DNA from: an uncultured Gammaproteobacteria bacterium
GTDB lineage: Bacteria > Patescibacteriota > Microgenomatia > CAYXHB01 > CAZYTL01
Direction of reading: 5' to 3'
Length of the DNA: 64,000 nt
NCBI GenBank assembly: GCA_964650355.1
Contig: CAZYTL010000004.1
Coordinates: 67,912 to 131,911 of the forward strand
A model generated the notes under the pieces. It was not told the DNA's origin. It did not search any database and was given only the letters and a program-made list of their open reading frames with translations. Positions within the stretch are counted from its first letter, which is position 1. The number at the start of each line of letters is the position of its first letter. The translations under genes and the position numbers were made by a program. Below are positions 7,494-49,601 of this stretch, in pieces.

Positions 7494-7982
7494 ATGACCG
7501 AACAAAAAAAACTCGTCATCGGCTGGTTCTCTTTCACCTGCTGCGAAGACAGTACCATCGTCTTTTCCGAACTCCTTAACCAGCACCTGGACGAATGGAA
7601 AAACCTGGTCGAATTCCGTCACGCCAAAGTCCTCAAAACCCATAACGAGCTTAAAGACCTGGACGTAGCCTTTATCGAAGGCGCCATTTCTTCCGATTCC
7701 CAAGCTGAAGAAGTTAAGAGAATCAGAGATAACTCCAAGTACGTGGTAGCCATCGGTGCCTGCGCCTGTACCGGTCGTCCCTCAGCCAGCCGCAATGACT
7801 TCACGGACCAGGATATCACTGAAAAAATTCAGTGGTATTTCGATCACTTCGACTATTCCCAAAAAGTTCGCAAATTGGATGAAGTCATCAAAGTCGACGA
7901 TCAAGTCGACGGCTGCCCCATGAATGTCAATAAATTCCTTGAAATAGTGAATAAATACCTAAAGGAATTTAAAATAACTTAA
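7494..7982 (+). CDS. [NiFe] hydrogenase small (delta-like) subunit, NuoB-fold
   Basis: 162 aa immediately upstream of the large subunit. GACACTG and DGCP motifs typical of the group-3 small subunit C-terminal cluster. The N-terminal motif is atypical (FTCCED instead of CxGC). Confidence 0.65.
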   Translation: MTEQKKLVIGWFSFTCCEDSTIVFSELLNQHLDEWKNLVEFRHAKVLKTHNELKDLDVAFIEGAISSDSQAEEVKRIRDNSKYVVAIGACACTGRPSASRNDFTDQDITEKIQWYFDHFDYSQKVRKLDEVIKVDDQVDGCPMNVNKFLEIVNKYLKEFKIT

Positions 7983-8014
7983 AGAAAAATCTCCTACTAA
8001 AGATTTACAATCTT

Positions 8015-9319
8015 ATGCACCAAGAACCAATCACTCTCGACTCCATCACCAAAATCGAAGGCAACGCCAAACTCGAAGTCCAAATCCAAGACCACCAACT
8101 GGTAGATCTGAAATTCATCATCAACGACTACCGCCGCTTCTATACCCAAGCCATCAAAGGCAAACCCATGCTCACCGCTCCCTCATTTCTTTCCCGCATC
8201 TGCGGCACTTGCTCCGTCGCCCATCTCTTCTGTTCCATAGAAGCCGTGGAAAAATCCCAAAACATTAAAATTACCGACCAAACCAAACTCCTACGCCGCC
8301 TGGCGTATAACTCTCTCATGATCCGCGATCATGCCCTCCACCTTTATTTCTTTGTCCTGCCCGACGTCTTGGGCCTTGACTCCATCCTGGACATTCCCGA
8401 CGATCCTAACGACCTCGGCCACACTTTATTGCATGACTCTTTTGCCATCAAACAACTGGGCACCGATCTGTCTACCGCCATTATTGGCGCTGCCGTCCAT
8501 GCCCCCTTACCCACCGTGGGCGGCTTTTTCAAACTCCCTGACCCTTCCCAATTTCCCGCCTTTATCGATCGTCTACAAGCCATCCGTCCACAGGTTCTCC
8601 GCTGCATCAAACTCTTCTATGACTGGAAAGAAGAATTCAAACGCAACACCGATTACCTTTGCTTAAGAAACTCAGATCATTGGGATTTCCTCGAAGGCCA
8701 GGTCATCAACTCCAATGGCTTAAAAGTCCCCGAGGAACAATTCCACGACTTTCTCACCCAAGTAGTCATCCCCTATTCCCAGGCAGAAGGCTACAAATTC
8801 ACTGACACCCACGAAGACTATTTCGTCGGTGCCCTAGCCAGAATCAACCTCAATCAGGACCTTCTTCACCCCCGGACCCAAAAAGATATCGAACCCTACC
8901 TCAACTTTTTCCCTTCAGACAACATTCATGACAACGATCTCGCTCAGGCTATCGAAATCCTTCACGCTGTCGACGACTCCATTGACATCCTTCAAAACTT
9001 ACACCTCAACTCCGACGAAAAACCCATTCGCCAGCCTCCTCAAGCCGGCACTGGAGTAGGTGTTGTCGAGGCTCCCCGCGGCATTCTCTATCATCTAGCC
9101 CAAGTTAATGACAAAGGCATCATCACCGACTACGACGTCATCGTCCCCACGGCCCAAAACCAAATCAACATCGAAAACGACCTTAAAAAATACTTTTCCG
9201 CACACCACTCAGAAGACAAAAACACCGTCCAACTCCAGGCTGAAAAAATCATTCGTGCTTACGACCCTTGCATGTCCTGCGCCACCAACTTCCTCAAAAT
9301 TGAATGGATCAAAAAATAA
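8015..9319 (+). CDS. [NiFe] hydrogenase large (alpha) subunit, group 3-like
   Basis: N-terminal RICGTCSVAH (L1 Ni-binding motif) and C-terminal DPCMSCATN (L5 motif) followed by a short extension of the kind cleaved by the maturation protease. Confidence 0.9.
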   Translation: MHQEPITLDSITKIEGNAKLEVQIQDHQLVDLKFIINDYRRFYTQAIKGKPMLTAPSFLSRICGTCSVAHLFCSIEAVEKSQNIKITDQTKLLRRLAYNSLMIRDHALHLYFFVLPDVLGLDSILDIPDDPNDLGHTLLHDSFAIKQLGTDLSTAIIGAAVHAPLPTVGGFFKLPDPSQFPAFIDRLQAIRPQVLRCIKLFYDWKEEFKRNTDYLCLRNSDHWDFLEGQVINSNGLKVPEEQFHDFLTQVVIPYSQAEGYKFTDTHEDYFVGALARINLNQDLLHPRTQKDIEPYLNFFPSDNIHDNDLAQAIEILHAVDDSIDILQNLHLNSDEKPIRQPPQAGTGVGVVEAPRGILYHLAQVNDKGIITDYDVIVPTAQNQINIENDLKKYFSAHHSEDKNTVQLQAEKIIRAYDPCMSCATNFLKIEWIKK

Positions 9320-14340: not shown

Positions 14341-15219
14341 CTACATGTACCCCTTCATCAATTCTCCCACATCTCGCTTAGTTGGCAACTGTTCCACCAA
14401 GGGCTTGTCTTTAATCGTCGGAAAATACGATTCCTGAGTCGGCTGTTCCACTTGGTAAAAGATCCCTAACGGAATCTGCTTATCGCCCGGCTTGGCATCC
14501 GGACTCGCCCACTCCAAAGCCTTCGTAAATGCCTTTCCTTTATCCGTCCGGTCATAATCATCCCCCAACCGGTAAATATGTTGTTGAAAAAACAAATGCG
14601 TATACAATTTATTAAACGTCACACACGGCTGCAACACATCCACAACCGCAAACCCCTTATGCTCGGCTGCTTTAACCATTAATTCAGATAAAGAAGGAAT
14701 ATCTCCGGCATATCCTCTGGCCACAAACGTAGCTCCGGCAGCAATCGCCAACGCCAAAGGATGAATCGGCTCATCAGGATTCCCGGCCGGCGTTGATTTC
14801 GACTTAAAATCCTTGGGTGAAGCCGGCGACGTCTGTCCTGTGGTTAGTCCGTAAATCGCATTATCATGAATCACCACCATCAAGTCCTGATTTCGTCTGG
14901 CCGCATGCACAAAATGATTACCCCCCTCAGCCAGACAATCTCCGTCGCCGGTAAACACCACCACATTCAACCGGTGATTAGCAAACTTAATCCCTGAAGC
15001 CACCGGAATCGGCCTGCCGTGCAATCCCTCCACCGCTGAAATCTTCACAAAATTCACAATATGACCGTGACATCCAATCCCGGCCACAATACAAGTATTC
15101 GTATCGTCCCATCCCTGGGCCACACAAGCCTGTTTAAACGCTGCCCAGATCCCAAAGTCCCCGCACCCAGGGCACCAATTCGGTATATTCGGAGTTTGTA
15201 AATTTTGTAGTTCAGTCAT
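14341..15219 (-). CDS. 2-oxoacid:ferredoxin oxidoreductase, beta (TPP-binding) subunit
   Basis: N-terminal WCPGCGDFG and GDGD TPP-binding motifs. Confidence 0.9.
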   Translation of the reverse strand: MTELQNLQTPNIPNWCPGCGDFGIWAAFKQACVAQGWDDTNTCIVAGIGCHGHIVNFVKISAVEGLHGRPIPVASGIKFANHRLNVVVFTGDGDCLAEGGNHFVHAARRNQDLMVVIHDNAIYGLTTGQTSPASPKDFKSKSTPAGNPDEPIHPLALAIAAGATFVARGYAGDIPSLSELMVKAAEHKGFAVVDVLQPCVTFNKLYTHLFFQQHIYRLGDDYDRTDKGKAFTKALEWASPDAKPGDKQIPLGIFYQVEQPTQESYFPTIKDKPLVEQLPTKRDVGELMKGYM

Positions 15220-15224
15220 AATCT

Positions 15225-16997
15225 TTATAAAACGCTTTTAACTTTTTTCACAATTTCTCCGGGATAAATCGGCCTCCCATCATACTTCAGCAAATCATCC
15301 AAAATATCAACTCCCGTATGTTGCTTGATCCACCCTCCCATCTGTCCACTAAAGTTACACTCCACATCAATTAAATATTTCGCCCTCAACAACTGCTGCA
15401 TTACCTCTTGAACAGGAAACGGATTGATCCAAGTCAAATGCAAGTAGTTCACCACGTCTTCGCTTTCATGATTTAAGACTTTCATCGCCTGTAAAATAGC
15501 TCCTTTATTACTACCCCAAGACACAATCGTCACCCGAGCATCTTTGTGCCCATACAACTTAGGTGCTTCCATGTCCTGCTCCCTGCACGTCTCTAACTTT
15601 CTCATCCGTTTAGTCATCTGCTGCATCCGATTTTCCGCATCTTCATCCGAATATCCGGAAGGACTATGTTCGTCCGAATTAACCGTCACGTGGTTACCCA
15701 CTCCCGGAATACTTCGTTCAGAAATCCCGTCTTCGGCCAAAGCGAATCGCCCATAACCTTCAACCTTTTCCATTACCAGCTTCCCTCGGTCCACCTCGTA
15801 GCCGTCGGAGTTAAACGGTGCAAAACTCTGATGGCTCTCACACATCATCTTGTCAATCAACACCACTACCGGAGTCTGATATTTCTCAGCTAAATTAAAT
15901 GCTTTCATCGTCAAATGAAAAGCCTCTTCCGCATCTCCCGGCGCTAACACAATCCTGGGAAACTCCCCCTGATGAGCATGCAACACAAACCGCAAATCCC
16001 CCTGTTCAGTCCAAGTCGGCAACCCTGTTGCCGGCGCCCCCCTCATTCCCATCACAATCACCACCGGCGTTTCCGTCATCCCTGCCAACCCATAACCTTC
16101 AGTCATCAAGCAGAATCCCCCGCCTGATGTGGCCACCATCGACCTCACTCCGGCATACCCTGCCCCAACCGCCATATTTATTCCCGACAACTCGTCTTCA
16201 GGTTGCTTATACACAAATCCGTACTTCTCCTGCCAAGGTGCCAACGCGTGCAAAATATTCGAAATCGGCGTCATTGGATAAATCGCCGCAAACTGCATTC
16301 CTCCCGCCACCGCCCCCAAAGCCACCGACTCATTCGCCGTCACCACCATTCTTTCTCTTGACTCTTGTTTCTCGCTTCTTGAATCTGGTATCACCACTCT
16401 AATTCCCTCATTAAAATGTTCCAATACATAATCATACCCCGCCTTAGCCACTTTTTGATTCTCATCAATAATCTCCTGCTTCTTATCGCTGAACTCCTCC
16501 GCAATCATCTCATTCAAATGCTGCAAGTTTCCTCCCAATAGCGCCATCGTCGCTCCCAAAGCCACCGTATTCCGCATCACTTCCAACCCGCCTAAATCCT
16601 TGGCAATCTTCACTAATGGCACCGGAAACAAATCCGCCTTATCGCTCAATTTACTCACATCTATATTCTGCTCCGAGTTATACAAAATCCCTGGCTTCAC
16701 CTGCTTACCTCCCGCCTCGTACGAGGCTAGTTCATCTTTATGCAGTTCAATCGTCTCGGCATTCAACGCCACCAAAAAATTAGTGTCTTTTACTGGAGCC
16801 GTCACCGGCTCTTTACCTACCACCACTTGCATCACGTTATGTCCCCCCCGCACAATCGAGGGATACTCAGTATAATCATAAATCTCATATCCCGACCTGG
16901 TGGCAATCTTTGAAAACGTCAACCCTGCAGACATGATCCCGAACCCCGCCGGACCCCCTATCTTAAACGAAAACAAACCCTTCATATCTTTCACCAT
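15225..16997 (-). CDS. 2-oxoacid:ferredoxin oxidoreductase, alpha subunit with fused N-terminal gamma domain
   Basis: 590 aa; N-terminal FKIGGPAGFGIMSAG (gamma domain) followed by the alpha domain. Adjacent to the beta subunit with a 6-nt gap. Confidence 0.9.
   Translation of the reverse strand: MVKDMKGLFSFKIGGPAGFGIMSAGLTFSKIATRSGYEIYDYTEYPSIVRGGHNVMQVVVGKEPVTAPVKDTNFLVALNAETIELHKDELASYEAGGKQVKPGILYNSEQNIDVSKLSDKADLFPVPLVKIAKDLGGLEVMRNTVALGATMALLGGNLQHLNEMIAEEFSDKKQEIIDENQKVAKAGYDYVLEHFNEGIRVVIPDSRSEKQESRERMVVTANESVALGAVAGGMQFAAIYPMTPISNILHALAPWQEKYGFVYKQPEDELSGINMAVGAGYAGVRSMVATSGGGFCLMTEGYGLAGMTETPVVIVMGMRGAPATGLPTWTEQGDLRFVLHAHQGEFPRIVLAPGDAEEAFHLTMKAFNLAEKYQTPVVVLIDKMMCESHQSFAPFNSDGYEVDRGKLVMEKVEGYGRFALAEDGISERSIPGVGNHVTVNSDEHSPSGYSDEDAENRMQQMTKRMRKLETCREQDMEAPKLYGHKDARVTIVSWGSNKGAILQAMKVLNHESEDVVNYLHLTWINPFPVQEVMQQLLRAKYLIDVECNFSGQMGGWIKQHTGVDILDDLLKYDGRPIYPGEIVKKVKSVL
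16354..16388. repeat. Heptanucleotide tandem repeat inside the OFOR-alpha coding sequence (encodes DSRSEKQESRER)
   Basis: Read directly: TCTCTTG ACTCTTG TTTCTCG CTTCTTG AATCTGG. Confidence 0.7.
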
Positions 16998-33014: not shown

Positions 33015-33659
33015 ATGAAAAAGTTTCTCCTCCCCGCCCTCTTCAGTCTTCTCCTCTCCGGTTGTACCCTTAACCAAGCCGCCCAGACAACTCCTCCCTC
33101 TACCACTCAACCCAACACCCAATCAGACCAATCAATGGCCAATAACATTACTGGTTCACTTGAAGATCTTATCAACCAATCTAAATCCCTCAAATGCACC
33201 TGGCAATACACTGATCCTCAAAACCAAAGCCAGGGACAGGGAGAAATCTTCGTCTCAGGCAAAAAATTTAGCGGCTCTACTACCATCCAAGTCCCCGGCC
33301 AAAACCCTATTACTTCCGAAATGATCAGCGACGGTCAATGGCTATACCAATGGGGCGGTCCTCTGGCTCAGGGAGTCAAAATGAACATCAGTGAACTTCA
33401 AGACATGGGTTCTGACCAAACCAACGATCAGGCCCAGTCCGCTTACAAAACTCTTAACCAGCAGTATCAATATCACTGCCAAGCCTGGACTCCCGACCAA
33501 TCTAAATTCCAACTCCCCTCAGGGGTTAAGTTTACCGATTTGACTCAGCTAATGCAAAATGCTGTCGAAAATTCCCAAGATATGCAACAAAACGCCTGCG
33601 CCATGTGCGACCTCCTTCCTGCTGACGCCAAAACCGAGTGCCTCAAATCCTGCCAATAA
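33015..33659 (+). CDS. Lipoprotein, Q/N/S-rich, C-terminal Cys pairs
   Basis: MKKFLLPALFSLLLSGCT gives a lipobox LSGC; the C-terminus carries CAMC...CLKSC. Confidence 0.6.
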   Translation: MKKFLLPALFSLLLSGCTLNQAAQTTPPSTTQPNTQSDQSMANNITGSLEDLINQSKSLKCTWQYTDPQNQSQGQGEIFVSGKKFSGSTTIQVPGQNPITSEMISDGQWLYQWGGPLAQGVKMNISELQDMGSDQTNDQAQSAYKTLNQQYQYHCQAWTPDQSKFQLPSGVKFTDLTQLMQNAVENSQDMQQNACAMCDLLPADAKTECLKSCQ

Positions 33660-33763
33660 ACTCCTCTCTATCTTCTTCATTTGTCTTCTTTTCACAAAGG
33701 TGTTAGTCTGAAATTAAGAGCGATATTCGAGGATCTCTTATTATTAAAAATAATTAAGGTACT

Positions 33764-33781: not shown

Positions 33782-34420
33782 ATGGCCAAAACCAAAACTC
33801 CCAACCACTTACACGTTTCCATCTTATTTCTGGCGGCAATCGCTTTAGTCGCCGTTATTTTTGCCTATTCGACCAGCATGTCCCTGGCTGGACCTCAATT
33901 CGGATGGTCTCAACAAGTAGGACCTAAAGAATGTGACCAGACAGGCGCCCCTGTCATCAACGTCACTCAAAAAATCGTCCACACCGTTGATTCCGGAGAA
34001 GCTGGCAATAACTGGGCTTATGATGATCTCAATCGCCAAATACAAGTCTGGCAACAATCGGACAACACCTACTGTGCTTTAATCGACAATCAAGGTAAAT
34101 TCGATTCCCAACCAGGTCAAGCCAGCCCAGGCAACACGGGCACCTTAACCGGCAAAGAAGATGGTACGTTTAAGGGTGGATACCGAGCCGTAATCGTTGG
34201 CAGTCTCAAAGCTAGCCCAGCTTACAAAACTCACGGCTCCATCGGCACTTTTGATTTCCAGTGCGACCTTTCAGGTAACTGTCCGGGTTACGTCAACTGG
34301 GTTGATAGCTACTTCAGCCCAGGTTACCAATTCAGCTATCAGTGGTGGGGTTGGCAATACCAGTACAAAAACAAAGTCTGGACCAACTCTTCCGACGGCA
34401 ACACTGGCGACATCCTCTAA
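33782..34420 (+). CDS. Membrane-anchored or secreted hypothetical protein
   Basis: Strong RBS; N-terminal TM helix; Gly/Trp/Tyr-rich C-terminus. Confidence 0.65.
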   Translation: MAKTKTPNHLHVSILFLAAIALVAVIFAYSTSMSLAGPQFGWSQQVGPKECDQTGAPVINVTQKIVHTVDSGEAGNNWAYDDLNRQIQVWQQSDNTYCALIDNQGKFDSQPGQASPGNTGTLTGKEDGTFKGGYRAVIVGSLKASPAYKTHGSIGTFDFQCDLSGNCPGYVNWVDSYFSPGYQFSYQWWGWQYQYKNKVWTNSSDGNTGDIL

Positions 34421-42386: not shown

Positions 42387-43674
42387 TTACTGTTCAATAT
42401 AATCCCTTAAAGTTCTGGCCTTTTGGGGAAGTCTTAATTTTCGTAATGCTTTAGCCTCAATCTGTCTGATCCGCTCCCTGGTCACCCCAAATTCCTGACC
42501 CACCTCCTCCAAAGTCCGCGATTGGCCATCAACTAAACCAAATCTCATCTCCAAAACTTTTCTTTCTCTATCAGATAATTCGTCTAATAAATCTCCAATT
42601 TTTTCTTTTAATAACGCCTCCACGGCTGCATCTTCTGGTCGAATCGTTCTTTCATCTTCAATAAAATCTCCTAACGTGCTGTCTTCCCCTTCCCCCACCG
42701 CCTCTTGTAGAGAATCTGGTTGCTGAGTCAATCGGCGAATTCCCTTTATTTTTCTCACCGCCTTATCCCACTTCTTTCTAACCGTCGCATCAAGTTTGGG
42801 TGTTTCTCCCTCCATCCATTCCCTGATTGCTCTTATATCCTCCTCACCCAAAAGTCCTATTTCCAATTCCAATGCTAATTCTTCTTCAGTTGGCTCTCGC
42901 CCCTTTTCCCCGAGCAACCTTCTTTGCCCGCGATTCAGACGACTAGCAGTCTCAAGCATGTGCACCGGCAGTCTGATTGTTCTTCCTTTATCGGCCAGCG
43001 CCCGTGTTATAGCCTGACGGATCCACCAACTAGCGTACGTAGAAAACTTATATCCTCTCCGATAGTCAAATTTTTCCACCGCCCTTATTAGCCCCCACAT
43101 TACCCTCCTGAATTAAATCTAGGAAATGTAAACCACGACCCTGATATTTTTTGGCCACACTGACTACTAACCGTAAATTAGCCTCAATCAAATGCTCTCT
43201 GGCTCGCTCGCCTTCCTCTACTTTTCTTTCCAATTTTTTTCTTTTCCCTTCATCTAATTCACTCGCTTCTAATTTCTTCGCTGCTTTCCGGCCCCGTTCA
43301 ATTTTTTTAGCCAGACTCACCTCTTCTTCTTGAGTTAACAAGGGTCTTCTAGCAGCTTCCCTCAGATAAAAACCCACTGGATTATCCCTCGGATTTAATC
43401 CCCCATCGTCTCCCTCATCTTCAATGGTTAGCAATTCTTGTTCACGTTCAATTTGCACCTCTAAATCCTTTAATTGCTCCTCTGTAGGCTCCTTATCGCT
43501 ACTCTCATCCCTTCCCACATCTCTAGCCAGACCCCCTCCTCCTCTTCTCTCATCAGCTGTCTTCCGCGCATAAAATTCCCTTCCTGAAAACAAACCTGGT
43601 CTACCTCCCTCATCCGCCCGAATCCCCTCCGGCAATATCTCGGGACTAAAGGCAAATTCAGGACTCAACACCAT
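42387..43674 (-). pseudogene. rpoD: RNA polymerase sigma-70 (RpoD-like), interrupted by a +1 frameshift in a C5 run at 43094..43098 (pseudogene or sequencing artefact)
   Basis: The upstream ORF ends [41 protein letters not shown]; the downstream ORF begins [34 protein letters not shown] (region 2.3/2.4) through regions 3 and 4. Deleting one G restores the canonical [15 protein letters not shown]. Confidence 0.8.
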
Positions 43675-47276: not shown

Positions 47277-47397
47277 CCAACATCTACTACGCGGGCTCCG
47301 ATATCCCTCGGGACCCGCCCACTATTCGCTCCAAATTCTGAGTGAATCCAAAGTCGAATCAACAATCTTCTATTTATCAGTAAATGATCTTTACTGT

Positions 47398-47432
47398 TTA
47401 CTGATTACTGATAACCGATTACCGACGGCCTA
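47398..47432. repeat. Heptanucleotide tandem repeat (TTTACTG x2, ATTACTG, ATAACCG, ATTACCG), intergenic
   Basis: Read directly. Confidence 0.75.
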
Positions 47433-47852
47433 TTTTTTCTTTGCTTTGACAGCAATCTTTTTCGGCTTCACCTCTTCCGCCTTAGGCAACACCAACTTTA
47501 ACACTCCGTTTTCCACTGTAGCGTCTGCTTTATCAGCCTTTACCGGACAAGGCAGTGATGTCGTATACAAATACTTGGCTTGCCGGGCTTGGCGGTAAAC
47601 CACTTTGCGCTTCTTCTTTTCCTCTTCATTAGTTTCATATTCCGCCTTAACCGTCACTGTACCCCCTTCCACCGACACCTCAACCTTATCTTCCGGCACT
47701 CCAGCCACATTGGCTTCTACCACCACATCATTGTCGGTTTCATACACAGTCAATCCTTGTTCAACATCACTCCACCAGTCTTCGTCAAACATGCTCGGCA
47801 TGCGCCAAAAGTCTCTTGACAAAGCCATCGGATCCCATCTGACAATCGCCAT
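47430..47852 (-). CDS. Small heat shock protein, Hsp20/alpha-crystallin family
   Basis: Start set at the internal ATG (MAIVRWDP...), which is preceded by a perfect SD AAAGGAGGTGA with 9-nt spacing. The ORF track's longer form begins inside the upstream hairpin. Alpha-crystallin-domain-like sequence, C-terminal IAVKA. Confidence 0.8.
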   Translation of the reverse strand: MAIVRWDPMALSRDFWRMPSMFDEDWWSDVEQGLTVYETDNDVVVEANVAGVPEDKVEVSVEGGTVTVKAEYETNEEEKKKRKVVYRQARQAKYLYTTSLPCPVKADKADATVENGVLKLVLPKAEEVKPKKIAVKAKKK

Positions 47853-47900
47853 AATTATCTCACCTCCTTTCGCATACCGCTTAAAATACAATAATATGCG

Positions 47901-48060
47901 ATCCTCCAAAGTCGCTCTTCGAGCCGCCCTTACTAATGAAGAAAGGCTCGAAGGAAGACTCGGAGGATACGTTCATTTTCAATGATAGCACGCAGTCCAC
48001 CGATTTCGCTCTTGAATCCGCCCCTACTAATGAGGAAAGGATTCAAGGAAGATAAGGTGG
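47901..48060 (-). ncRNA. Structured 5' leader of hsp20: two tandem ~65-nt hairpin modules with compensatory substitutions (candidate thermosensor or cis-regulatory RNA)
   Basis: Copy 1 (47901..47968) is TCCTCC...CTCTTCGAGCC-[GCCCTTACTAATGAAGAAAG]-GCTCGAAGGAAG...GGAGGA. Copy 2 (47996..48060) is TCCACC...CTCTTGAATCC-[GCCCCTACTAATGAGGAAAG]-GATTCAAGGAAG...GGTGGA. Both the inner and outer stems covary while the loop is conserved. Confidence 0.5.
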
Positions 48061-48091
48061 ACAAACTGCCTTTATTAAACTTCAAAACATT

Positions 48092-48112
48092 TAGAATTCT
48101 CCGAATTCTAAC
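48092..48112. promoter_or_regulatory. Perfect inverted repeat TTAGAATTC-N3-GAATTCTAA
   Basis: Read directly; lies between the hairpin modules and the CIRCE element. Confidence 0.4.
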
Positions 48113-48157
48113 TAACTTCCAATTTTCAATCTCTTCAATCTCTAATTTTAGACGCCC

Positions 48158-48184
48158 TTAGCACTCTTGTATCATAAGTGCTAA
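48158..48184. promoter_or_regulatory. CIRCE element (HrcA operator) TTAGCACTC-N9-AAGTGCTAA
   Basis: Matches the CIRCE consensus TTAGCACTC-N9-GAGTGCTAA at 17 of 18 arm positions; upstream of hsp20. Confidence 0.7.
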
Positions 48185-48344
48185 CTACTTGTCAAGACCT
48201 TTTCCTTAATTTTTGAACTTACATTAACAGCCTATAGAAGAAAAATGATAACTCCATGAGAAAAATCTCGTTTATATCAACCTCTCTAAATCCACTCAAC
48301 CCATTCCTTACTCTCACTAAAACCTCTGTCACAAATCAATCAAA

Positions 48345-49601
48345 TCAATTCTCTCCACCTCTCCTCCATTCGTAAAACCATCTCCAGACCTTCTCCCACC
48401 AACTATAACTCTCCTTTAATAACTTCACTTCATACTCATCCTTAAACGCGTCAAGCTGCACCGTCTGACTTAAATACCCGTCTGCCGTCACCCCAAACTC
48501 CTGCTCACTGCTCAGCACCGCCAACTTAAACTCCCCGTTACCATCTGTCGTCCCTTGCTTTAACTCCGTAACCACCTGCGCCCCCCCGACCCCCTGCCCC
48601 CACTCATTCACCACCCTGCCACTAATCACCCGCGGCTCATAAAACGACTTCAATACCTGCACTGCCAACTTCGCCTGCCCGTCATCTCTCCACAAAGCCG
48701 TGGATCCGCCCCTGTTCACCCAATAATTCATGCCCATGAATCCGTCTACTCCTGACAAACCCCTCAACGCTTCATTTAACCACCGCCCTTGACTCTCTTC
48801 ACTCAAGTCCCCATGAATATCCTTCACCGGCACCCCGGTTTCCCCTAACAACACCTGGCCCTGGCTGTTCCCGATCAAATCTTCCACATCACTTACCAAC
48901 TTCTCCGGCGTGGCCACATAATGGTCCACCGTCACTACTCCCCCCAACTTTTTCGTCGTTTCTGCGTTCATTATTAACCTGGCCACGTCCCCGTTCATCG
49001 AATACACACTTCTCACCTGCTTGCCTATCTGCTTAAAAGCCAACTGCTCCAGACCATACTCCTCAATCAAAAACGCTCGATGTTCTTTCACGTCTCCGTT
49101 CCACCTGGGGTCACCCGGACCTCCGTTCTCGCATTCCGGACAGCCGTCAAAAATATCCCCGTCCGCAAACAACTCCCCATGCTGCAAAATAAAATCTTTT
49201 GTCTTGCTCAAATGCTCATCCCTATTAATCTTGTCATACCCAAACCAACCCTCCCAGCCTGACCAATTACCCCTAAACCAAACGTTCAGTCCGTAACCTC
49301 GTGCCGTTTGTACCCACAACCGCAAAAACGGCAAAAACTCCTCATCATAAGGCGTGCCAATCGCCACATGAGTGGCTCCCAAATCCGCAATCTCCTTCAC
49401 CTGATCATCAATCACCTGCGCAAATTCTTCGTCATTCAGCTTCTCCCGCGCCACATCCCGCGAATACTTCATCGTGTCCACCGCCTGCACTGGCCACCAC
49501 TGAACCCTCTTCTCTTCCGCCCGCACCTTCATACCACTACCCCACTCCCATCCCATCAAAGCCAAAAACACCGCCGAAATAACCAATATATTCACTTTCA
49601 T
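48345..49601 (-). CDS. Secreted TIM-barrel glycosyl-hydrolase-like protein with C-terminal beta-sandwich (CarboxypepD_reg-like) domain
   Basis: Signal peptide; the C-terminal GRVVNEWGQGVGGAQVVT...DGNGEFKL resembles a carboxypeptidase-regulatory-like domain. The catalytic assignment is weak. Confidence 0.45.
   Translation of the reverse strand: MKVNILVISAVFLALMGWEWGSGMKVRAEEKRVQWWPVQAVDTMKYSRDVAREKLNDEEFAQVIDDQVKEIADLGATHVAIGTPYDEEFLPFLRLWVQTARGYGLNVWFRGNWSGWEGWFGYDKINRDEHLSKTKDFILQHGELFADGDIFDGCPECENGGPGDPRWNGDVKEHRAFLIEEYGLEQLAFKQIGKQVRSVYSMNGDVARLIMNAETTKKLGGVVTVDHYVATPEKLVSDVEDLIGNSQGQVLLGETGVPVKDIHGDLSEESQGRWLNEALRGLSGVDGFMGMNYWVNRGGSTALWRDDGQAKLAVQVLKSFYEPRVISGRVVNEWGQGVGGAQVVTELKQGTTDGNGEFKLAVLSSEQEFGVTADGYLSQTVQLDAFKDEYEVKLLKESYSWWEKVWRWFYEWRRGGEN

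Follow-up and report, generated by a model that had tools for sequence, protein, structure and literature searches.

The hsp20 locus, its operator and its promoter

The gene under study encodes a small heat-shock protein (Hsp20) and lies on the minus strand of the window, by which we mean the whole 64-kb stretch of DNA that was analysed. The protein has 331 homologues, mostly Patescibacteria proteins from metagenomes or MAGs. On the 5' side of hsp20 the neighbouring gene, whose 418-residue product carries a CarboxypepD_reg domain, ends at position 48345. A promoter, an operator and a series of repeated and palindromic elements lie between the two genes (Table 1). The first-pass annotation had listed a CIRCE operator, a 9-N3-9 palindrome and two tandem modules in the hsp20 leader, and all of these elements are present where it had placed them. 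The small ORFs that cross the modules (50 and 59 residues) have neither a Pfam match nor a Shine-Dalgarno (SD) sequence.

Table 1. Positions of the elements at the hsp20 locus and of the third module copy within the window
Feature	Position	Strand	Basis and scores
Sigma-70-type promoter	48195..48166	minus	Read from sequence: TTGACA 48195-48190, 18-nt spacer, extended -10 TG-n-TACAAG 48174-48166
CIRCE operator, TTAGCACTT-N9-GAGTGCTAA	48184-48158	both	17/18 bases against the consensus
Direct 9-nt tandem repeat, GAGATTGAA x2	48142-48125	minus	Repeat search; distal leader
Perfect 9-N3-9 palindrome, TTAGAATTC-N3-GAATTCTAA	48111-48091	both	Inverted-repeat scan; 0.03 expected at up to 3 mismatches
Module A, distal 68-nt hairpin	48062-47995	minus	MFE -29.8 kcal/mol; covariance-model score 99.2 bits
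Module B, proximal 68-nt hairpin	47968-47901	minus	MFE -35.3 kcal/mol; covariance-model score 98.7 bits
Small AU-rich hairpin, CGCAUA...UAUGCG	47900-47871	minus	Between module B and SD; z -1.5, alone not significant
Shine-Dalgarno region, AAAGGAGGTG (SD GGAGG 47867-47863)	47870-47861	minus	Sequence; unpaired in predicted folds
hsp20 CDS (small heat-shock protein, 140 aa)	47852..47430	minus	Pfam HSP20, E 3.6e-16
Third, degenerate module copy	33661..33738	plus	17.9 bits with the covariance model (E about 0.03 for the whole window)

Measured against the consensus TTAGCACTC-N9-GAGTGCTAA, the CIRCE site has the exact N9 spacing with one mismatch, and it is the sole such site in the 64 kb, where 0.01 would be expected by chance; the earlier call of a near-consensus CIRCE upstream of hsp20 was therefore correct. 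The site overlaps the TTGACA/extended -10 promoter in such a way that the -10 box of hsp20 sits within the CIRCE spacer. Our consensus promoter scanner missed this promoter because its -10 ends in G. Neither reading of the sequence nor the scanner recognised a second promoter between the modules and the SD and, since no alternative promoter is recognisable, transcription probably runs through the ~300-nt leader and its hairpins.

This arrangement resembles the class I operators of the CIRCE/HrcA system (Bacillus subtilis groESL/dnaK and Lactobacillus acidophilus hsp16) in that a chaperone gene is directly preceded by a sigma-70-type promoter and, overlapping it, a 9-N9-9 inverted repeat with 17/18 consensus bases. 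It differs from them in that the operator spacer carries the -10 and forces it into the non-canonical form TACAAG, a layout that is common to the nearest relatives. We consider the CIRCE upstream of hsp20 a credible operator, from which we infer binding of HrcA. In that case hsp20 would be transcribed from a sigma-70-type promoter with its -10 inside CIRCE, under classical heat-shock repression of the HrcA type. HrcA, GroEL and DnaK are absent from the scanned ORFs of the 64-kb window.

The distal leader, between the operator and the modules, holds the direct 9-nt repeat and the perfect palindrome. Each palindrome half-site has 6 of 9 bases in common with the CIRCE half-sites, and the palindrome could be a separate operator. 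As an RNA hairpin it reaches -6.9 kcal/mol (z -2.6). A perfect 9-bp inverted repeat alone is not unusual in 64 kb, since three perfect 10-nt ones occur elsewhere in the window, and the palindrome is absent from the hsp20 leaders of relatives. We also considered the distal leader, that is the direct repeat together with the palindrome, as a decayed third tandem unit and rejected this idea: the local alignments were no better than those of shuffles, of which 28/500 and 92/500 scored as high.

Two tandem hairpins and a third copy

Modules A and B belong to a direct repeat of 77 nt with 73% identity and a period of 94 nt. Module A lies 94 nt upstream of module B, the two are spaced by 26 nt, and the leader thereby holds two tandem 94-nt units, each made up of a 68-nt hairpin and a short AU-rich tail. 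The module GC content is about 50%, compared with 45% for the window. Both modules fold better than their dinucleotide shuffles (z -4.3 for module A and -4.4 for module B), none of 200 shuffles folding as well. From the end of module B it is 45 nt to the ATG of hsp20, and the hairpins lie at least 33 nt upstream of the SD.

Compensatory changes between the tandem hairpins had already been described in the first-pass annotation, and our count bears them out. Among the 24 pairs common to modules A and B, 6 are changed on both sides, none on one side only, and none is broken, in a comparison that rests on two sequences and has a weak shuffle control (6/500). By simple combinatorics of our own, the chance that 12 substitutions land as 6 complementary pairs among 48 stem positions is of the order of 1e-9. 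As a further control, the 3' partner columns were slid by 1-3 positions, upon which pairing dropped to 40-50% with zero double changes. Compensatory differences of this kind between paralogous hairpins show that a structure has been kept, not that it regulates the adjacent gene.

The apical part of the modules had been described as a conserved 19-nt loop, a description that we revise. On the sense RNA it forms an apical helix with six further pairs (two of them G-U) and a C-AUUA-G apex, and the sole two differences within these 19 nt constitute one of the six compensatory pairs, C-G versus U-A. Overall, modules A and B differ at 6/20 unpaired and 12/48 paired positions. Since unpaired positions vary about as often as paired ones, there is no real contrast between a conserved loop and variable stems.

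The pattern of change also bears on the suggestion, made with the first-pass annotation, that the modules are protein-binding sites. Inverted repeats bound as duplex DNA by a dimeric transcription factor would suit modules that lie between promoter and gene, with a perfect 9-N3-9 palindrome of CIRCE-like half-sites nearby. However, the half-sites differ between modules A and B at 3/9 inner-stem and 2/7 outer-stem positions, and always in both arms together. It is thus the pairing that is kept rather than a recognition sequence, which argues that a hairpin in single-stranded nucleic acid is maintained and not a duplex protein-binding site. In addition, the arms lie 19-55 nt apart with asymmetric internal loops between them, and the third copy described below is not at a promoter. 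We regard duplex operators as very unlikely.

A covariance model of modules A and B (R1), run over the whole window with filters off, retrieved one further full-length match and no other, a degenerate third module copy that the first-pass annotation had missed. It is also detected by blastn (E 0.003-0.005) and nhmmer (E 0.005) and, when used as the query itself, matches nothing else in the window but modules B and A. The copy lies in sense orientation between two co-directional genes: it starts immediately past the stop codon of one (33015-33659) and stops about 48 nt short of the ATG of the other (33782-34420). Its similarity to module B spans the 3' arm, the AU-rich tail and the SD, with a local alignment score of 42 compared with 17.7 +/- 2.4 for shuffles (0/500 as high); by this alignment the small AU-rich hairpin of the hsp20 leader is part of the common tail. 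The third copy keeps 14/18 homologous pairs of the outer, middle and inner stems and adds 2 new compensatory pair types. Its apical part has been replaced, and its fold is no longer better than those of shuffles. No copies beyond these three were found in the 64-kb window.

Gene 33782-34420 encodes a hypothetical protein with a membrane anchor, which occurs widely in Patescibacteria, belongs to no Pfam family and is not a heat-shock protein. Because the third copy thus stands beside an unrelated, non-heat-shock gene, the module family would not be specific to hsp20, and the copy points to a repeat family rather than to an hsp20-specific regulator.

The tandem arrangement by itself might have a simpler cause, a functionless local duplication whose arms were kept complementary by template switching during replication (quasi-palindrome correction), with neither selection nor mobility. 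A 94-nt period that includes partly conserved tails is what in-place duplication would leave behind. Template switching can make perfect stems and multi-base compensatory changes in one event (PMC8794818), and 3/6 compensated pairs lie close together (columns 19, 20 and 22), as from one templated event. This qualifies the earlier argument that covariation between the copies speaks for selection on RNA or DNA secondary structure: pairing has indeed been kept through compensatory differences, but template switching can keep arms complementary without selection as well. Local duplication nevertheless leaves the homologous copy 14 kb away unexplained. Moreover, the internal loops and bulges are unpaired and identical in both modules, and indiscriminate correction of the arms would tend to erase them. 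We consider this explanation unlikely.

The locus in relatives and the predicted fold of the leader

CIRCE or a close variant lies upstream of hsp20 in eight loci of relatives (L001, L002, L033, L035, L036 and L040, with variants in L018 and L023). In L001, L033 and L002, where Hsp20 identity is 82%, 79% and 74%, respectively, TTGACA and a CIRCE carrying the -10 are followed by an AT-rich leader of 90-130 nt without a module, and in L001 the upstream gene is syntenic as well. L040 (64% identity) and L018 and L023 (65-69%) have the promoter and CIRCE and then, almost directly, the SD. The leaders of L035 and L036 (69%) measure 130-140 nt and carry hairpins of their own that are unrelated to the modules. 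The TTGACA-N17/18-TAnAAG layout is kept in L001, L002, L033 and L036. CIRCE at an hsp20 gene had been thought less common; in this clade it is the rule across the eight loci, and CIRCE on a small HSP gene has already been described for Lactobacillus acidophilus hsp16 (PMC3179173).

The modules, by contrast, are absent upstream of hsp20 in all eight loci, the nearest at 82% Hsp20 identity included. A scan of the relatives' loci with the covariance model from modules A and B gave generic hairpin matches of 7-12 bits only. Conservation of the hairpins upstream of hsp20, on which the first-pass annotation had staked its reading in advance, is thus missing at 82%, 79% and 74% Hsp20 identity despite the presence of promoter and CIRCE. 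The search for the loop motif in other genomes that it had proposed was run with the apex motif, which is less conserved than the 3' block of the modules, as the query and gave no genuine match in GTDB representative genomes (185,579), JGI metagenomes or IMG/VR: all 13 of the matches (2, 10 and 1, respectively) lack flanking inverted repeats and are attributed to chance. A search of phage and plasmid collections (blastn, distant mode) returned no match.

Since CIRCE is found upstream of hsp20 in the relatives and the modules are not, CIRCE-hsp20 emerges as the conserved feature. On this comparison, CIRCE with its promoter is the ancestral part of the hsp20 locus, and the modules are a lineage-specific addition to its leader, the 5' UTR measuring 20-140 nt in relatives compared with about 300 nt here. 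CIRCE-hsp20 would then be a conserved heat-shock circuit of this Patescibacteria clade, useful for regulon reconstruction in tiny genomes with few regulators.

Two further observations concern the long leaders. TCATTA recurs in 4/6 long hsp20 leaders, including at the C-AUUA-G apex of the L035 hairpin. The latter hairpin, of roughly 74 nt, has the same apex as the modules and is otherwise unrelated to them.

An RNA thermometer of the ROSE, fourU or zipper type would control translation of hsp20 by melting, and a thermometer-like element had been put forward as one possibility for the modules. The gene class fits, as small HSP genes are classic targets (PMC4152365), and in module B a GGAGGA that resembles an SD pairs with a UCCUCC that resembles an anti-SD. 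The predicted transcript was folded at temperatures of 15-60 °C, with its 5' end set at about 48163 and its 3' end at +40 of the CDS. In this thermodynamic prediction modules A and B remain 0.87-1.00 paired from 15 to 60 °C, hence at least 87% paired even at the upper end. The real SD lies outside both modules, and the SD and the AUG are unpaired in the MFE as well as in the ensemble folds: the AUG has an unpaired probability of at least 0.89 from 15 to 42 °C, and the predicted accessibility of the SD rises only from 0.46 at 15 °C to 0.58 at 42 °C. With the real SD, the UCCUCC arm of module B could make no more than 5 pairs, compared with 7-9 in its own stem.

Comparison with known RNA families argues in the same direction. 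Rfam gave no match over the whole window at the gathering score, and over 47700-48400 at E up to 10 there was no ROSE or fourU, only mir-3099 and mir-186 far below threshold; such sub-threshold matches to miRNA precursors are typical of any long hairpin. As with the thermometers of small HSP genes (ROSE, fourU and cyanobacterial hsp17; PMC4152365), the gene belongs to the hsp20 family and has hairpins in its 5' UTR, but neither SD nor AUG is masked by a temperature-labile helix, and the hairpins are far too stable. With the modules not kept in relatives either, an RNA thermometer is the most improbable of the explanations that we weighed. As predicted here, the modules would be very stable, temperature-insensitive hairpins of the 5' UTR that leave the SD free.

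Origin of the modules and their possible role

The reading that we favour, with a probability of roughly 0.5, is that the CIRCE-type promoter is ancestral and that the 5' UTR was expanded by two tandem units from a small family of intergenic repeats that is palindromic and lineage-specific (MITE-, REPIN- or ERIC-like). The growth of the 5' UTR in this genome alone would consist mostly of the two tandem 94-nt units, whose mobility we infer. A third member that lies between unrelated genes and is decaying is expected of small palindromic intergenic repeats. The hairpin structure in single-stranded nucleic acid would be preserved by selection on propagation of the element or on the transcript, and hairpin-templated correction by template switching may contribute to the complementarity of the arms. 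The leader 3' of the conserved operator is fast-evolving and ranges from about 20 to 300 nt, and there is about an even chance that the longest one arose when a hairpin-forming repeat was acquired and duplicated in tandem. The likeliest consequence for hsp20 would be an effect on mRNA stability or processing, the modules serving for example as substrates of double-strand RNases as in the case of Correia and ERIC elements. Should the repeat prove abundant, it would join the few families of small palindromic repeats that have been described in bacteria of the candidate phyla radiation.

MITE transcripts form stable stem-loops, occupy intergenic and UTR sites, and may be cleaved by RNase III (PMC10969869). 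Like the Correia elements of Neisseria and the enterobacterial ERIC (PMC10969869), the modules are short non-coding repeats with inverted arms that form a long stable stem-loop, found here in a 5' UTR and in an intercistronic spacer; they are likewise lineage-specific with a decaying copy, and an effect on mRNA processing or stability would be expected of them too. Unlike those elements, they have no target-site duplication and no cognate transposase in the window, number three copies in 64 kb, are not AT-rich and stand at hsp20 as a direct tandem. As read from the sequence, the flanks of module A, module B and the third copy have no common direct repeat; target-site duplications decay in old MITE copies (PMC10969869), so that their lack here is weak evidence. 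No transposase or RAYT is encoded among the scanned ORFs of the 64-kb window, and tblastn with a Y1 transposase gave no match. A similar comparison can be made with the REPIN/REP and RAYT system, in which the hairpin arms commonly show compensatory changes and the elements commonly form ordered clusters (PMC3116915). The modules resemble it as extragenic hairpins in the ~70-110 nt range with compensatory arm changes and a tandem order, but their arms are not REP-type palindromes and the window holds no RAYT gene (PF01797).

Several points tell against the repeat-family reading. The three copies lie at only two loci within the 64-kb window. The similarity of the third copy reaches to the SD, so that a "leader cassette" could have been copied here rather than an element transposed. 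The hsp20 copies are intact after 27% divergence while the third is decaying, which fits selection on the hsp20 transcript. Finally, a selfish repeat leaves unexplained the complementarities between leader and CDS that are described next.

A perfect 12-nt complement joins the 5' arm/internal-loop region of module A (ACCUUAUCUUCC) to nt 159-170 of the hsp20 CDS, and a perfect 11-nt complement joins the apex of module B (UCUUCAUUAGU) to CDS nt ~220-230. None of 300 leader shuffles attained a 12-nt complement to the CDS. Complements of at least 11 nt to the leader number about 14 in 128 kb (both strands), and two of them fall within the 423-nt hsp20 CDS, for which our own, post hoc estimate of P is about 1e-3. 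Judged by alignment score the complementarity is modest (2/300 shuffles). A duplex prediction with RNAduplex for the complete leader and CDS is uninformative at such lengths, 15/41 control CDS chunks scoring as well as hsp20. Apart from the short perfect matches, the antisense leader has no colinear homology to the CDS, and nothing similar to these matches is seen in relatives. The MFE of the full mRNA keeps the hairpins and forms no leader-CDS pairs.

These matches bear on the possibility that the modules are a dedicated, lineage-specific cis-regulatory RNA, acting as a platform for a protein or RNase, as a stabiliser or as a long-range pairing partner of the CDS, with stems whose divergence would let each tandem copy fold on its own. 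Such a role would account for 6/24 pairs being compensated and none broken at 27% divergence while the copy away from hsp20 decays. All copies are sense-oriented and end 45-48 nt before a start codon, and the two perfect complements involve less-structured parts of the hairpins. The L035 leader hairpin with its C-AUUA-G apex can be counted on the same side. So can the two invariant G-U pairs, which extend the apical helix of both modules on the sense RNA only and thus favour that strand, if slightly; the minus- and plus-strand fold energies are equal, so folding does not single out the acting strand. Against a dedicated RNA stand the lack of modules in all relatives' hsp20 leaders, the lack of an Rfam family, the family member beside an unrelated gene, the full-mRNA fold free of leader-CDS pairs, and the post hoc nature of a complementarity signal whose alignment score is modest. 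We hold a dedicated RNA to be possible but doubtful. It is compatible with an origin as a repeat element, since an element can be exapted, and the two readings are not exclusive.

The leader-CDS complements and the recurring TCATTA keep one specific form of the dedicated-regulator reading alive, at a low probability. In this form the tandem hairpins would be a new, lineage-specific cis-regulatory device whose exposed parts pair with the two sites in the hsp20 CDS, or which gives rise to hairpin-derived antisense RNAs after cutting by a double-strand RNase. By either route, mRNA stability or translation would be linked to stress without the involvement of HrcA, with the UCAUUA of the long leaders as a conserved core. 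We think this improbable; if the complementarity were functional, it would represent a new kind of control of small HSP mRNAs.

An origin of the modules from an IS200/IS605 or RAYT element was considered separately and rejected: the window holds no Y1 transposase, and the octamer CCTCCGAG, which the modules have in common with REP-like palindromes of the relative L003, is too short to mean anything. In L003 itself, a Y1 transposase gene (Y1_Tnp) flanked by the REP-like palindromes adjoins hsp20.

Complementarity between the leader hairpins and the hsp20 coding sequence

Each of the two tandem 68-nt hairpins in the hsp20 leader, modules A and B, contains a perfect complement to a segment of the small heat-shock gene itself, of 12 nt for module A and 11 nt for module B, and both complements lie within less-structured portions of the hairpins. 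About 14 such complementary matches were found across the window, two of them inside hsp20, an observation made post hoc. The predicted minimum-free-energy fold of the full hsp20 mRNA uses neither pairing, and no comparable leader-coding sequence complements were found in the relatives.

Coordinates of features in the window and in the hsp20 loci of relatives (L numbers)
Feature	Location	Strand	Description
12-nt complement	47683-47694 / 48047-48058		hsp20 CDS / module A
11-nt complement	47623-47633 / 47932-47942		hsp20 CDS / module B
TCATTA / C-AUUA-G sites	L035:1085-1160; L036:1150-1190; L033:225-250; window module apices
REP-like palindromes	L003:540-600		GAACAACCTC-G-GAGGTTGTTC, perfect
Y1 transposase gene	L003:627-1298		PF01797, RAYT/IS200-like
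Inverted repeat	47374-47414	-	TTATCAGTAA/TTACTGATAA, perfect, 10 nt
Direct tandem repeat	48332-48349	+	CAAATCAAT x2, 9 nt
sigma-70 ORF	43066-43674	-	region 1.2, first half of region 2
sigma-70 ORF	42387-43100	-	remainder of region 2, regions 3 and 4
[NiFe]-hydrogenase small/large subunit and pyruvate:ferredoxin oxidoreductase alpha/beta genes	7494-9319; 14341-16997	+; -

Leader motifs and palindromes in relatives

Four of six relatives have the TCATTA hexamer in their long hsp20 leaders, versus about 0.4 expected, and the C-AUUA-G apex of the window modules is also the apex of an unrelated 74-nt leader hairpin in L035. Periodic 7-nt CATWAYT/TATACYT repeats stand immediately 5' of the SD in L001 and L033. 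In L003, where the normal start and upstream region of hsp20 are apparently missing, the gene is followed by REP-like palindromes and then by a Y1 transposase gene; REP/RAYT-type systems therefore occur in this clade.

Sequences flanking hsp20 and other genes in the window

The inverted repeat located 3' of the hsp20 stop codon is accompanied by CAGTAA repeats, lacks a T-run and is possibly a non-canonical terminator; hairpins 3' of hsp20 are also found in L001, L002 and L003. On the other side, the upstream gene carries a tandem repeat at its 3' end, and the hsp20 intergenic region thus holds several short tandem duplications.

Farther away, a sigma-70 (RpoD-like) gene is divided into two overlapping ORFs (together 42387-43674); the split points to a frameshift, a pseudogene or an error in the assembly. 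The hydrogenase and pyruvate:ferredoxin oxidoreductase genes are consistent with the fermentative metabolism expected for this candidate-phyla-radiation genome.
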